Assembly: GCF_002154695.1 (NCBI RefSeq)
Contig: NZ_MTAV01000210.1
Location: 7,528-71,527 of the forward strand
Length of the DNA stretch: 64,000 bases
DNA from: Nostoc sp. T09
Lineage (GTDB): Bacteria > Cyanobacteriota > Cyanobacteriia > Cyanobacteriales > Nostocaceae
Direction: 5' to 3'
Shown here: one piece after another, positions 4,041 to 64,000 of the stretch
How the letters are laid out: every line of letters starts with the position of its first letter
Numbering within the stretch: position 1 is the first letter of the stretch
The notes under the pieces: generated by a model
What the model was told of the DNA's origin: nothing
The model's database searches: none
What the model saw: only the letters and a program-made list of their open reading frames with translations
Position numbers and translations under genes: made by a program

Positions 4041-4057
4041 TATTTTTAACTAAATTA

Positions 4058-4150
4058 GGACTTACGCAAAATTATGAAAAAACGAACCGCAAAGGGCACG
4101 AAGGACACGAAGGAAAGAGGATTTCAGAGGGTTTTTGCGTAAGTCCTATA
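4058..4150. mobile_element. MITE-like element with terminal inverted repeats (aggacttacgcaaaa ... ttttgcgtaagtcct)
   Basis: Perfect ~15-bp terminal inverted repeat. Related larger copies at 27107-27250 and 34470-34680 share the internal acgaaggacacgaagg / gtagacgcgttcgcggag core. Confidence 0.55.
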
Positions 4151-4342
4151 AATATTTTTCTAAAATACTAATGTCAAAAAGTCAATTTTTATTCAAATTT
4201 TTTTTGTTGAATTCCGCATAAAGATATATTAAAATTCATTGCGACCATATAAAAATAAATACACAGCCTAATTTAGGCACTGCCTAGCCCTAAAACAATT
4301 GATCCAAGTTTCATATAGTAAGCTAATCTTGGCAATTTAATC

Positions 4343-6620: not shown

Positions 6621-6653
6621 AATTTGCGATCACAGTATTATCCAGGTAGAAGT

Positions 6654-7265
6654 TTAGTTAGAAATTGGTACATTTTTAAACGCAGCTGTATCTGGTACAA
6701 AAATGTCCAGGTTCTTGACACCATCAGGAACCCTGATCCAGACATAGGCATCTGCTGACGCCTTTGGACGTAGCAGGGGCAAAGAAACACTTCCTGTTGA
6801 GCGATTTAAAGCAATTGCTTTGTAGGTTTCACTGGTTTCAGGATTACGAGCTGTTGTACTAGCAACCGATATAATATCGCCACCACCAACTCCATCTGTA
6901 GCTTGGCGACGGATACGCATCTGCACATTCACCACATCACGGTTTCCGGTTTCTGGATCTTTAATCCTTTTTGCTGAAAGTAACTCAACTTCTGCCTTAT
7001 TTCCAAACGCAGGCTGCACAAATTGACCAGGCTGAAGTACTGAGATAGCGACAGATGCTGGTGTTGTTTTTTCTGGCGATGCTGTGGGTTCTGGAGAAAT
7101 TGATTTTGCGACAGAGGTTGGAACAACAGCAGGACTAACCCCCGTGCTAATGTTGGTGGTATTTAGCGTTTGTCGCAGTGTGAAAACTTCGTAAGCTGCA
7201 TAGCCACCACATATTAAAGCCACAGTAGAGAGGAATACAGCCACACCAGACAGAAATGTACTCAC
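6654..7265 (-). CDS. hypothetical membrane-anchored secreted protein
   Basis: 203 aa with one N-terminal TM/signal anchor (GVAVFLSTVALICGGYAAY) followed by an S/T/P-rich linker. No known domain recognised. Confidence 0.4.
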   Translation of the reverse strand: MSTFLSGVAVFLSTVALICGGYAAYEVFTLRQTLNTTNISTGVSPAVVPTSVAKSISPEPTASPEKTTPASVAISVLQPGQFVQPAFGNKAEVELLSAKRIKDPETGNRDVVNVQMRIRRQATDGVGGGDIISVASTTARNPETSETYKAIALNRSTGSVSLPLLRPKASADAYVWIRVPDGVKNLDIFVPDTAAFKNVPISN

Positions 7266-17469: not shown

Positions 17470-17745
17470 ATTTCAATATTTTGGAAATAGATATCTATTC
17501 AGGCTGCTATGAGAAGCATTTAAGAATAAAAAATCGATATTTACAGCCTTTTTCCTTTATTTGAGCTATCTATCTCTTCATGGCGCAATATTTTAACTGC
17601 ATGGTCTGTAAATATAGGTTTTTCCTAACTTATACCAATTAAACTAATGATTGCAACACATTTTTGCTTCAAGACGCGATTCATCGCGTCTCTACAGATG
17701 GTCTATTTGTCACATTCTTTTTTCAAATTGGTATTATTTAAAAAA

Positions 17746-17967
17746 ATCGCGATGTTATTGATAAACGTCGCAATGTTATCGATGAACGCCTCGATGTTAT
17801 CGATGAACGCCTCGATGTTATCGATGAACGTCGCAATGTTATTGATAAACGTCGCGATGTTATTGATAAACGTCGCGATGTTATCGATGAACGCCGCGAT
17901 GTTATTGATGAACGCCGCGATGTTATTGATGAACGCCACGATGTTATTGATAAACATCGCGATGTTA
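17746..17967. repeat. tandem array of ~10.5 x 21-bp repeats (unit cgcgatgttattgataaacgt and variants)
   Basis: Strict 21-nt period. Units differ at 4-5 fixed positions (pos 3, 12, 16, 21). All six frames are open across the array (e.g. NIATFIN heptads on the minus strand, MLSMNAS on the plus strand). Confidence 0.9.
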
Positions 17968-18772: not shown

Positions 18773-19717
18773 ATGTCTTCAATTTTTTTGCCTCCTACGA
18801 TACAACCTATCTATAGCGCAATTGCCCAACGATCTGGAGTTGATTTATCTGTACTCCGCCTTGATTGTATGCACCCGTGGGTTAATGGCAATAAGTGGTT
18901 CAAGCTGAAGTACAACCTCTTGGAGGCTAAACAGAAAAATTGCACAACGTTGCTGACCTTTGGTGGTGCTTATTCTAACCATATCTTTGCCACCGCCGCC
19001 GCCGGAAATCTTTTCGGCTTCCGCACTATTGGCATGATTCGGGGAGAGGAGAGATTGCCACTGAACCCGACACTGAGTTTTGCTGTACAACAAGGAATGC
19101 AGCTTTTCTACCTTGACCGCGAGAAATACCGACAACGAAAAACAACAGCATTACATACAGAATTACAGCAACGCTTCGGTGAGGTGTTTATCATTCCTGA
19201 AGGTGGCGGCAATCTCAACGGTGTACGCGGTTGTATGGAAATAGTAAACACGGCAGCATTTGATACTGTATGTGTTGCTTGTGGTACAGGTACTACCTTA
19301 GCCGGAATTATACTGTCGCTGCAAAAAGGTCAGCGCGCCATCGGCTTTCCCGTTCTCAAAAATGGGGCATTTCTCGCGCCGGAAATAGATAGTTGGCTGA
19401 AGAATTACCTCGCCTCTGGTTTCCCAATTGTTAATGAGGCGATGTCTACGACGGGCTACGCCTACGCATCTTGGGAATTAATATGTGATTATCACATGGG
19501 TGGTTATGCCAAGGTGAACGATGAACTATTAATGTTTAGCCAGCAATTCACCCAAGAACACGGCATACCTTTAGATTATGTCTACACTGCCAAAATGTTT
19601 TACGGAGTGATGGATTTGCTCAAGCAGGGATTCTTTCCTGTTGGCGATCGCCTACTGTTGATACACACTGGTGGCTTACAGGGCAATCTCGGCATGGAGA
19701 AGCGGTTGCTTCAGTAA
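18773..19717 (+). CDS. 1-aminocyclopropane-1-carboxylate deaminase / D-cysteine desulfhydrase family PLP enzyme
   Basis: 314 aa. MHPWVNGNKWFKLKYNL matches the PLP-lysine region (..SGNKxRKL), plus TFGGAYSNHIFATAAAG and a C-terminal HTGGLQG motif. Confidence 0.8.
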   Translation: MSSIFLPPTIQPIYSAIAQRSGVDLSVLRLDCMHPWVNGNKWFKLKYNLLEAKQKNCTTLLTFGGAYSNHIFATAAAGNLFGFRTIGMIRGEERLPLNPTLSFAVQQGMQLFYLDREKYRQRKTTALHTELQQRFGEVFIIPEGGGNLNGVRGCMEIVNTAAFDTVCVACGTGTTLAGIILSLQKGQRAIGFPVLKNGAFLAPEIDSWLKNYLASGFPIVNEAMSTTGYAYASWELICDYHMGGYAKVNDELLMFSQQFTQEHGIPLDYVYTAKMFYGVMDLLKQGFFPVGDRLLLIHTGGLQGNLGMEKRLLQ

Positions 19718-41551: not shown

Positions 41552-41783
41552 CGCAATTGCCATTTTTGATACTACAATTGCCATTTCGGAGACTACAATT
41601 GCCATTTTCGATACTACAATTGCCATTTCTGAGACTACAATTGCCATTTCTGAGACTACAATTGCCGTTTCGGAGACTACAATTGCCATTTTCGATACTA
41701 CAATTGCCATTTTTGAGACTACAATTGCCATTTTTGAGACTACAATTGCTATTTCGGAGACTACAATTGCCGTTTCGGAGACT
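41552..41783. repeat. tandem array of ~11 x 21-bp repeats (unit actacaattgccatttcggag and variants), 200 bp upstream of the MVP start codon
   Basis: Strict 21-nt period. 16 conserved nt (actacaattgccattt, containing palindromic caattg) plus a 5-nt variable tail (cggag / tcgat / ctgag / ttgag). All frames are open (TTIAISE heptads on plus, MAIVVSK on minus). Confidence 0.9.
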
Positions 41784-62689: not shown

Positions 62690-62830
62690 AAAGGGACAAG
62701 GGAGTGTGGGAGAGGGCGGGAAAGGGTGGGGAGACAAGGAGGACAAGGGAGTGTGGGAGAGGGTGGGGAGAAATGGGACAAGGGAGAAGTAACTAATAAA
62801 TCTTGCTGATTACCTTTTGAGAAATGACTA
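62690..62830. repeat. G-rich heptamer-like repeats plus the shared ~90-bp dispersed element (copy of 31562-31680)
   Basis: gggacaagggagtgtgggagagggtggggagaaat...taataaatcttgctgattaccttttgagaaatgac. Confidence 0.55.
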
Positions 62831-63535
62831 ATTTCGCCACAAAGCAATACCACCTAATAAACCAGTGATGTTAGGGATGAGTTTCACATTTAAGGGTAGC
62901 TGGAGATTTACCTTGACAGCTTCGCCGCCCCCAATGTAGAGGCAATCATAATTGAATAGATGTTGCAAAGATGCGATCGCCTTTTCTAAACGCCTATTCC
63001 ATTTTTTATCACCAATTTTTTCTAAAGCCGCCCGTCCCAGCTGTTCTTCGTAAGTCTCACCTTTGCGGAACTGATGATGACCCATTTCCATATTCGGCAC
63101 CAGCTTACCATCGATAAATAAAGCTGAACCAAATCCTGTACCCAAGGTAATCACTAATTCCAAACCTTTACCTGCGATCGCCCCAAGCCCCTGCATATCT
63201 GCATCATTAATTACTCGTACAGGCTTGTTTAACTGCTTTGATAAGGCTGTTTGTAAATCAAAACCGATCCAATCCCGGTCTAAGTTTACCGCCGTCTCCG
63301 TCACTCCATACCGCACTACACCCGGAAAACCTACCGAAACACGATGAAATTCACCTTGAGAAGCAGCTAATACGACAATCGCATTGATCACTGTGTCTGG
63401 TTTAGCAGGTTGGGGTGTCTCTAAACGTGCCCTTTCTGTTAAAGGATGCCCTGTAACATCCAATACCATAGTTTTGACACCGCTACCACCAATATCAACT
63501 GCTAGAGTGCGAATTGAGCCATTATCTTCAACCAT
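62828..63535 (-). CDS. ROK family sugar kinase, short form (polyphosphate-glucokinase-like)
   Basis: 235 aa. N-terminal LAVDIGGSGVKTMVLD (ATP-binding) and the ...VINDADMQGLGA... / GTGFGSALF pattern. The size matches the short cyanobacterial PPGK-type ROK proteins. Confidence 0.7.
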   Translation of the reverse strand: MVEDNGSIRTLAVDIGGSGVKTMVLDVTGHPLTERARLETPQPAKPDTVINAIVVLAASQGEFHRVSVGFPGVVRYGVTETAVNLDRDWIGFDLQTALSKQLNKPVRVINDADMQGLGAIAGKGLELVITLGTGFGSALFIDGKLVPNMEMGHHQFRKGETYEEQLGRAALEKIGDKKWNRRLEKAIASLQHLFNYDCLYIGGGEAVKVNLQLPLNVKLIPNITGLLGGIALWRN

Positions 63536-63734
63536 TTCTTTTTTTCCTCGCCATTGTGTACTACTTGGTTATTATGCTCTGCCGCATCAGCTTCGAGTAC
63601 AGATGTTTTGAGAGTCTTCACAAGTTCAAAAATTCTTGGTGACGAGTAACCCACTATAGCTATTTTAAATTGCTGAGAAGACAAGGTTTTTCAAGAGAGC
63701 ACAAAAATTATCCCTACAATGCGATGATGGTGCG

Positions 63735-63975
63735 GCATTAAAGTTAAAGACTCGTTGGCGAGTATTAAAGACTCGTTAATGGAGTTATTAACCTCATTCG
63801 CGAGTATTAAAGACTCGTTGACGAGTATTAAAGACTCGCTCACGAGTATTAAAGACTCGTCGCCGAGTATCAAAGACTCATTCACGAGTATCAAAGACTC
63901 GTCGGCGAGTATCAAAGACTCATTCGCGAGTATTAAAGACTCGTTAATGGAGTTATTAGCCTCATTCACGAGGAG
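63735..63975. repeat. tandem array of ~11 x 21-bp repeats (unit gagtat[t/c]aaagactc + 6-nt variable tail), ~200 bp upstream of the ROK gene
   Basis: 15-nt conserved core forming a 4-bp mini-hairpin (gagt...actc), followed by variable hexamers (gttgac / attcac / gctcac / gtcggc / attcgc / gttaat). The array is bounded at both ends by the same diverged unit (ggagttatta[a/g]cctcattc). Confidence 0.9.
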
Positions 63976-64000
63976 GATAGTCTTTTGCCTTCAAGAATAA

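Follow-up and report, generated by a model that had tools for sequence, protein, structure and literature searches.

The locus considered here raises the question of what a 21-bp tandem array represents when a reading frame is open across it on either strand and its repeated core also carries a dyad. The array lies near the end of a 64,000-nt stretch of Nostoc sp. T09 DNA (contig NZ_MTAV01000210.1), which as a whole we call the window; it is referred to as array 3, arrays 1 and 2 being the other period-21 arrays of the window. An earlier note on this DNA had described it as a hairpin-forming 15-nt core followed by a hypervariable 6-nt tail and had placed the three arrays in a repeat class of their own. 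We conclude that array 3 is probably a copy of a non-coding 21-bp minisatellite, selfish or neutral, whose family is dispersed in heterocyst-forming and some other filamentous cyanobacteria, and that it probably has neither a gene of its own nor a conserved structured RNA. The best-supported picture from the sequences compared is that this family would be fast-evolving, coupled to heptamer repeat arrays and able to insert at new sites. Array 3 itself was called by Tandem Repeats Finder (TRF) with a period of 21 at 63744-63945 (9.6 copies, score 230). Its canonical unit consists of the core GAGTATYAAAGACTC plus a 6-nt tail, and exact cores of the form GAGTAT[T/C]AAAGACTC start at eight positions (63760, 63802, 63823, 63844, 63865, 63886, 63907 and 63928), compared to a chance expectation of 0.27 matches in the window with up to 2 mismatches. 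The description as a period-21 array with a 15-nt core therefore stands, as does that of the tail, said to take at least six values and found to take eight.

The core of array 3 recurs in the same 21-bp organisation at no fewer than 118 loci in at least 66 assemblies, in a search that used two adjacent cores as the pattern and one genome per species (family counts refer to the matches listed). There is thus a class of repeats united by a common origin or a common constraint, and the possibility that these arrays are coincidental, private minisatellites falls away for array 3. The listed loci are mostly from Nostoc, the rest including Fischerella, Westiellopsis, Scytonema, Tolypothrix, Atlanticothrix, Mojavia, Tildeniella nuda and a Leptolyngbyaceae metagenome-assembled genome (MAG), and up to nine loci come from one genome. 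Each locus holds one cluster of cores, spanning 42-420 bp, with a period of exactly 21 bp in all loci. The flanks of non-orthologous loci are unrelated to each other, the match to the window is confined to the arrays, and no solitary exact core was found outside arrays in the window or in 847 kb of loci. Literature text searches with the core and peptide strings of the family returned no match, nor did BLAST of array 3 against the PLSDB plasmids or the search of viral contigs.

Nearly all listed loci (117/118) are intergenic. With the arrays masked and open reading frames (ORFs) of at least 100 aa considered, the flanking contexts were '++' in 30 cases, '--' in 28, convergent in 19 and divergent in 9, so that divergent-gene regions are the rarest (9/86). 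Moreover, the arrays lie closer to the 3' ends of genes (median 64-98 nt) than to their 5' ends (127-153 nt), which runs counter to the association with 5' regions that the earlier note had proposed to test. No strand bias of the arrays relative to the flanking transcription units was detected (55 versus 53 in 3' contexts). The gene families that recur near arrays are paralog families (CHAT/TPR, kinases, Uma2-like proteins and HNH endonucleases).

The family is physically coupled to short tandemly repeated repetitive (STRR) heptamers. A G-rich heptamer arm (GGGGCAT, GGGGAAT, GGGGAGT or GGGGGCA) is present within 150 nt upstream of 29/100 arrays, a C-rich arm downstream of 29/111 and both arms at 12/93; the reverse arrangement accounts for two cases per side. 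The claim that the known STRR class does not describe such arrays thus holds for the unit, which is 21 bp rather than 7, but not for the separation of the two repeat types. The arrays are polar, a GGAGTTC-type unit opening 23 of 100 and an ATCCCC tail, which merges into the C-arm, closing 11 of 100. Between array and C-arm, five loci (L004, L060, L093, L007 and L019, several of them non-orthologous) carry a ~40-nt tail, GAATCTTAATTTATACCAAATTACAGTTACAAATCATTCTC, which is missing from the window copy and suggests that a subfamily with a defined end may exist. In three groups of orthologous loci the array is reverse-complemented relative to its flanks (L004 versus L060/L085; L013/L043/L055 versus L093; L076 versus L106), and inverted repeats surround the segment that is seen in both orientations, between species only, in these three groups. 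When L004 is compared with L060/L085, the unique 16-nt and 40-nt parts between the arms have flipped along with the array, which fits recombination between inverted arms.

Across speciation a locus retains its array, but the number of units and the order of the tails turn over quickly. In 22 ortholog groups with flanks of 75-97% identity, the arrays comprise 2-21 units, the tails stand in changed order and variants of the core have become fixed locally. Tail repertoires overlap by 0.37 between orthologs and by 0.27 between arrays within one genome, compared with 0.16 for other pairs, which indicates that each locus probably descends vertically with some exchange within the genome.

The whole composite can also sit in frame inside a protein-coding gene, and can do so in either orientation. 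In Nostoc sp. CHAB 5715 (JAIVFR010000508.1, L120 882-1322) a G-arm, 13 units and a C-arm, together ~441 bp, interrupt the adenylation domain of a non-ribosomal peptide synthetase (NRPS); the insert separates 'RFVANPLI' from 'LYKTGD' without breaking the frame, just ahead of the YKTGD motif, and is read in the SIKDS frame. Outside the Nostocales, in Tildeniella nuda (JAHHIG010000027.1, L003 about 6634-6991), a diverged array lies in frame in an ORF of more than 1058 aa that resembles a GH38 alpha-mannosidase, as assigned by eye from motifs, and is read in the ESLIL frame, so that the two genic copies are read in opposite orientations. One genic copy is among the 118 listed loci and the second was found separately by protein search. 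These rare genic copies show that the repeat does insert into sequence that was already there. Further long ORFs that cover arrays (major facilitator superfamily transporters, O-methyltransferases) were discarded as read-through from upstream arrays. The same NRPS gene holds a second in-frame repeat (L120 1541-1686), a 42-bp unit present 3.5 times (PLPNPPLIKGRELE) on a CCCCTCCC...GGGGAGGG palindrome.

We compiled per-position conservation from 1183 in-phase units, 494 of which do not match the search pattern. Fourteen of the 15 core positions are conserved at 86-99%, the supposed loop positions 8-10 being the most conserved (97-99%), whereas the 6-nt spacer is only loosely constrained (RYYNRC). 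Conservation reaches 91-99% at unit positions 1, 10 and 13, each of them a third codon position in either frame with 2- to 4-fold degeneracy, while the non-synonymous positions 2-5, 18 and 20 vary, positions 2-5 changing jointly as the GGAGTT variant. Position 7 is C, T or A, with G in 1/1183 units, and the varying sites show mostly transitions (read from the sequences, untallied). That 14 of the 15 core bases are conserved, among them bases at sites that are synonymous in both frames, speaks for recognition of the nucleotides themselves, and a conserved 15-mer with one free position and a loose spacer looks like a target of sequence-specific recognition rather than a fold. A coding-type constraint was rejected on the same grounds, synonymous positions being held while non-synonymous ones drift; the signal is mixed, since positions 7, 16 and 19 do vary. 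We judge that coding is probably not the constraint on the array family.

Two readings would give the array a product. The first takes it as a small heptad-repeat, coiled-coil-like protein, the minus strand giving (ESLIL[VA][ND])n or the plus strand (SIKDS[FSL][TA])n, and the sequences lend it some colour: both frames are open over array 3, as the earlier note had recorded, their third codon positions coincide, variation falls largely at the shared third positions 7, 16 and 19, the minus-frame changes are conservative (alternation of V/A and of N/D), position 19 is free at a 4-fold site, and position 7 retains Ile in the plus frame, where I and L/F have an a/d-type spacing; both frames are moreover read through within real proteins. 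These coding-like signals are outweighed by the behaviour of the frames, determined for 87 arrays with at least 300 bp on both sides. The plus frame is open through 81/87 arrays and the minus frame through 82/87, so that each is broken in about 5-6 arrays; an ATG at or ahead of the first unit is present in 34/87 (plus) and 22/87 (minus), and stop-to-stop ORFs reach a median of 39-84 nt (13-28 codons) past the array, as for random flanks, with unconserved termini. Relatives of the minus frame in the protein database are 33 small hypothetical ORFs, nearly all in clusters of one to three members and without a Pfam domain, and the C-terminal tails of the eight that were read are unrelated; the 92-aa minus-frame ORF itself has no exact match in protein records. 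The plus-frame search of cluster representatives yielded mostly unrelated low-complexity, coiled-coil-like proteins of 19-49% identity, the relatives of high identity being short ORFs, and a Pfam scan of all array ORFs gave only sub-threshold coiled-coil or low-complexity matches. Since the array also flips between orthologs, bears no strand relation to neighbouring genes, is absent at array 3's site in close relatives and conserves positions 1, 10 and 13, a heptad-repeat protein gene with no shared start, stop or termini is largely refuted and, in our estimate, scarcely credible. The question of coding versus structural constraint, which had been called irresolvable from sequence, is thereby resolved a long way, as neither frame behaves as a gene. 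The second of these readings is that the array is transcribed and acts as RNA, as a string of small hairpins serving as protein sponge, mRNA stabiliser or terminator in the manner of REP or CsrB. Array 3 as a whole does fold far better than shuffled sequences (z -7.6 and -5.4), the GGAGTT variant preserves GAGT/ACTC pairing by a one-base shift of the 5' arm, and the arrays keep near 3' gene ends and avoid divergent-gene regions, as do REP elements. However, the z-scores arise because units pair with each other in a long-range zipper, as any tandem array with a dyad core will, and the proposed unit hairpin with its 4-bp stem and 7-nt loop is marginal, a single unit folding as DNA at -1.1 kcal/mol when its tail is ATTCAC and reaching -3.6 to -4.2 kcal/mol where tails extend the stem. 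At the tail positions that would lengthen the stem, pairing is no more frequent than with shuffled tails, so that there is no covariation to uphold that hairpin, and the four core pairs are nearly invariant and hence uninformative, apart from the arm shift in GGAGTT units. 'Loop' bases are conserved as much as stem bases, the arrays lack strand bias, and Rfam gave no match at gathering score and only chance-level matches at E up to 1. A structured RNA or hairpin repeat was discarded for lack of covariation and of a curated RNA family match, and we regard an RNA role as very unlikely.

Other readings place a function in the DNA. According to the first, the arrays would be phased binding sites for a sequence-specific DNA-binding protein, iteron- or centromere-like, with a 15-bp dyad site once per two helical turns, 21 bp being two turns of the helix; a cellular role in nucleoid organisation, regulation or recombination would then be implied. 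The conservation profile, with a fixed core (loop positions included) and a free 6-nt spacer, is what such sites would produce, and so are the invariant period, the dyads read from the sequence (GAGT-N7-ACTC within the core and ACTC-N6-GAGT across the spacer) and the independence of orientation, which fits function on double-stranded DNA. Yet no gene co-occurs with the arrays and no candidate protein emerged, a range of 2 to 21 copies at orthologous sites is loose for a functional site, the array is missing from the same site in close relatives, and core variants such as GAGTAAAAAAGACTC and GAGTATCAAAGATTC are fixed locally. Binding sites are thus an unlikely explanation in their own right, albeit one that is compatible with a dispersed minisatellite family and that would account for the conservation of the core. 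A further reading makes arms and array an invertible regulatory cassette with tandem promoter-like sites on one strand, such that flipping would redirect transcription (phase variation). It draws on the pairs of TTGATA and GATACT or AATACT, 17 nt apart, that array 3 presents every 21 bp, three of them on the minus strand (four on both strands, against 1.1 +/- 1.2 in shuffles), and on the three independent ortholog groups that have both orientations and inverted-repeat arms at the edges. Orientation relative to the neighbours is nonetheless not enriched (42/97 on the minus-strand side versus 53/106 on the other), and the lack of an orientation bias in the family argues against a general promoter role. 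No recurrent invertase gene was seen near the loci examined, the inversions are between species only, the window copy has no visible arms, and the promoter block of the gene next to array 3 is conserved where the array is missing; phase variation by such a cassette thus seems hardly likely. A broader possibility, improbable in our view, is that the composite of G-rich arm, 21-mer array and C-rich arm is either a functional module (a directional invertible cassette with phased promoter-like or protein-binding units) or the scar of a templated, telomerase-like repair that adds repeats, the G-rich strands always running 5' to 3' towards the centre from both sides. If either were true, a single generating machinery would underlie both the 21-mer family and the STRR heptamers, and this would bear on the origin of STRRs, unexplained since 1990.

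We return to the dispersed non-coding minisatellite family as the preferred explanation, against which several observations weigh. The exact two-unit search pattern inflates the apparent conservation of the core, for which reason the per-position table was also computed on the 494 non-exact units. The three common bases at position 7 are all synonymous for Ile in the plus frame, a coding-like signal. No recurrent transposase or other mobile-element gene was found beside arrays in the 8-kb loci, where only large Nostoc paralog families recur, and no pair of empty and filled sites with a target duplication was recovered, so that the case for 'insertion' is made by the two genic copies and by the comparison at the locus of array 3 described below. 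The window copy has no STRR arm in its visible flanks, its far side lying beyond the window. Finally, neutrality alone hardly accounts for a core that is conserved in different cyanobacterial orders, and the family may have a cellular function. With these reservations, a mechanism can be proposed in which replication slippage, unequal exchange and gene conversion would let arrays grow, shrink and homogenise, recombination between inverted heptamer arms would flip them, and insertion or seeding at intergenic repeat hot spots would create new copies. The core could be recognised at the nucleotide level, for example by a repeat-spreading machinery or a DNA-binding protein, and the two stop-free frames would be a side effect of the core sequence that lets rare genic insertions survive.

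In the window, array 3 is in register over 63739-63969 (plus strand), with eight canonical units, two atypical ones and one degenerate unit per end, the last at 63970-63990. In this phased 21-bp view, a degenerate first unit, TAAAGTTAAAGACTC followed by GTTGGC (63739-63759), precedes a canonical unit with an exact core, GAGTATTAAAGACTC plus GTTAAT (63760-63780), and a first atypical unit of the GGAGTT type, GGAGTTATTAACCTC plus ATTCGC (63781-63801). Seven canonical units with the tails GTTGAC, GCTCAC, GTCGCC, ATTCAC, GTCGGC, ATTCGC and GTTAAT follow (63802-63948), then a second atypical unit, GGAGTTATTAGCCTC plus ATTCAC (63949-63969), and a decayed terminal unit, GAGGAGGATAGTCTT with TTGCCT (63970-63990), which is 9/15 identical to the core. 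The earlier note had the array opening and closing with the same atypical unit, which would give it symmetric boundaries; a degenerate and a canonical unit in fact precede the first atypical one, and the recurrence reflects a 42-bp block (63760-63801) repeated directly, with 2 mismatches, at 63928-63969. Nor does the array run past the end of the window, as had been thought possible, for the decayed unit closes it inside. The two frames over it, a 92-aa minus-strand frame with ESLIL[A/V/G][N/D/S] repeats (63691-63969) and its antisense partner, an 81-aa plus-strand frame with SIKDSxx repeats and a TTG start (63755-64000), are both judged not to be genes. The promoter-like hexamer pairs, consensus matches formed from adjacent units, lie on the minus strand at 63845-63915 and point towards a gene for a ROK-family polyphosphate glucokinase (62828-63535, minus strand; PF00480). 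Overall, the earlier description was partly confirmed and largely right on array 3, and its interpretation is partly supported, being right on the repeat class and wrong on the 5' bias, the symmetric boundaries and the hairpin.

Array 3 lies in the 5' region of this ROK gene, 204-434 nt upstream of the start codon, and upstream of a promoter-proximal block of ~90 bp (63536-63626, minus strand) that is common to five relatives (L121-L125, compared by eye). The ROK protein is 97% identical in Calothrix sp. FACHB-156 and 91% in Calothrix brevissima NIES-22, and none of the five relatives (ROK proteins 91-97% identical) has a 21-mer array at this locus. Array 3 is therefore lineage-specific, and the comparison presents it as a probable lineage-specific filler upstream of the polyphosphate glucokinase promoter block. 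At the same position the five relatives have heptamer arms, two of them together with a AGACGCGATGAATCGCGTCT hairpin element. Upstream of the ROK orthologs in L124 (3772-3906) and L125 (3773-3907), a G-arm (GGGCATT)n and a C-arm (CCCTAGC)n flank a AGACGCGATGAATCGCGTCTCTAC hairpin, showing that inverted heptamer arms can enclose other small elements. The only public contig with an identical ROK protein, L001 (Logan SRR7276604, 1029 bp), ends inside the array, which fits an assembly break caused by the repeat.

The earlier note had attributed the same plan of core plus tail, in about 11 copies, to all three arrays of the window. The period-21 arrays at 17734-17967 and 41554-41783 are real by TRF and do have ~11 copies, but their variable positions are scattered and form no contiguous tail. 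Searches of the protein database, of metagenome and viral contigs, of plasmids and of 847 kb of Nostoc loci gave no relative of either array; they had no positive control, as array 3 itself is absent from the viral contigs and plasmids and unscanned in the metagenomes. The protein query, a chimera of five frames, had 0 matches, and two proteins encoded beside arrays 1 and 2 have no exact match in protein records. Other small repeats are present in the window. An element of ~115 bp resembling a miniature inverted-repeat transposable element (MITE), at 17621-17747, lies directly against the beginning of array 1; its terminal inverted repeats are TACCAATT...AATTGGTA, it contains a AGACGCGATTCATCGCGTCT hairpin, and copies occur in other Nostoc genomes (L066 15-146, L093 254-364 and L047 about 4049-4170). 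A different MITE-like element (4054-4149), with the ends AGGACTTACGCAAAA...TTTTGCGTAAGTCCT, is also present in L043, L055, L051, L094, L070 and L038, interrupting a 21-mer array in L055 and abutting the array upstream in L043. Within an ORF on the plus strand (18773-19717), a 30-34-nt stretch, GCGATGTCTACGACGGGCTACGCCTACGC... (19439-19472), recurs with 97-100% identity in six loci of other Nostoc genomes, at seven places in all, and looks like a very small dispersed repeat inside a coding region. Further period-21 arrays were encountered at family loci: a second type, GAAGCTCAAAGGTTCATTAAC, akin to the main unit and reading NEPLSF in its minus frame, adjoins some arrays (L005 3783-3876, L024 1-55, L040 4549-4680 and L049 1645-1684), an unrelated array, AATAGCAAATGCGAACGCAGA, of 7.5 copies lies in flanking Nostoc DNA (L049 4998-5155), and an array of 11 copies at L070 6840-7074 resembles a degenerate triple heptamer.

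Genomes of the Nostoc type are full of short repeats, including STRRs, small dispersed repeats (SDRs), HIP1 and MITEs. To these the family adds a well-defined 21-bp member with a core common to several genera, a fixed architecture relative to heptamer arrays (G-rich arm 5', C-rich arm 3') with evolutionary inversions between the arms, and cases in which the repeat has entered the adenylation domain of an NRPS and a glycoside hydrolase cleanly and in frame. Whether a dedicated protein recognises the core, whether the cassette flips within populations and how repeats enter genes thereby become testable questions. In practical terms, the arrays give rise to spurious 'hypothetical protein' calls and could be used as hypervariable markers for strain typing.

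Among known repeat systems, CRISPR arrays, with repeats of 23-50 nt, unique spacers of similar length and cas genes or a leader, were set aside because the present arrays have a 15-nt repeat and a 6-nt spacer that takes a small number of recurring values. Iterons and centromere-like sites share with the family a conserved site of ~15-19 bp and a short variable spacer, arranged head to tail at about two helical turns; they differ from it in that the 21-mer arrays occupy many chromosomal sites per genome, have no adjacent rep or par gene, vary extremely in copy number and have no PLSDB match. Rickettsia palindromic elements (RPEs) are, reportedly from work by Ogata and colleagues in 2000, single palindromes of 100-150 bp for which genic copies are the rule. 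The NRPS and GH38 cases recall them as selfish repeat DNA that is in frame within genes and read through, whereas the 21-mer family is tandem and genic in only 1/118 listed loci. The repetitive extragenic palindromic (REP) elements of proteobacteria, together with BIME and REPIN, are likewise short and intergenic, contain a dyad, are scarce between divergent genes, sometimes occur in clusters and reach many copies per genome. REP stems are long and stable, and REP elements are linked to RAYT transposases. The 21-mer stem is 4 bp, and its units all run head to tail at a period of 21 bp; a single unit forms a weak hairpin, and the 8-kb loci showed neither a RAYT-like neighbour nor a recurrent IS200/IS605-like ORF.

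The nearest counterparts are cyanobacterial. SDRs, of which eight families are published, are cited as elements of 21-27 nt in Nostoc punctiforme that are dispersed in Nostocaceae genomes, thought to be mobile with no enzyme identified, and said to be confined to the Nostocaceae (PMC3116915, PMC5861425, PMC4390886). The 21-mer family resembles them, as known by description, in unit length (~21 nt) and dispersal in Nostocaceae genomes, and differs from them in occurring also outside this family (Tildeniella, the Leptolyngbyaceae MAG) and in that its core, in the window and the 847 kb of loci, is seen only in arrays and never as a single module. SDRs are reportedly (Elhai and colleagues, 2008) mainly dispersed single modules, found in or beside heptamer repeats. 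STRRs, said to have been described by Mazel and colleagues in 1990 as heptamers of heterocystous cyanobacteria, are matched by the family in being tandem, almost exclusively intergenic (117/118 listed loci), typical of the Nostocales and highly variable in copy number (2-21 units in orthologs), and about 30% of the 21-mer arrays abut a G-rich or C-rich heptamer array. A similar preference of heptamer arrays for the 3' side of genes is on record, with frequent convergent array pairs in Xanthomonas (PMC4692102). The 21-mer is not itself a triple heptamer, the TRF period being 21 and the self-identity at lags 7 and 14 being at chance level (6/21), and unlike STRRs the family has a fixed 15-nt core with a variable 6-nt tail and one core across genera. 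The family is accordingly closest to STRR and SDR-type cyanobacterial repeats, the latter compared by description only.

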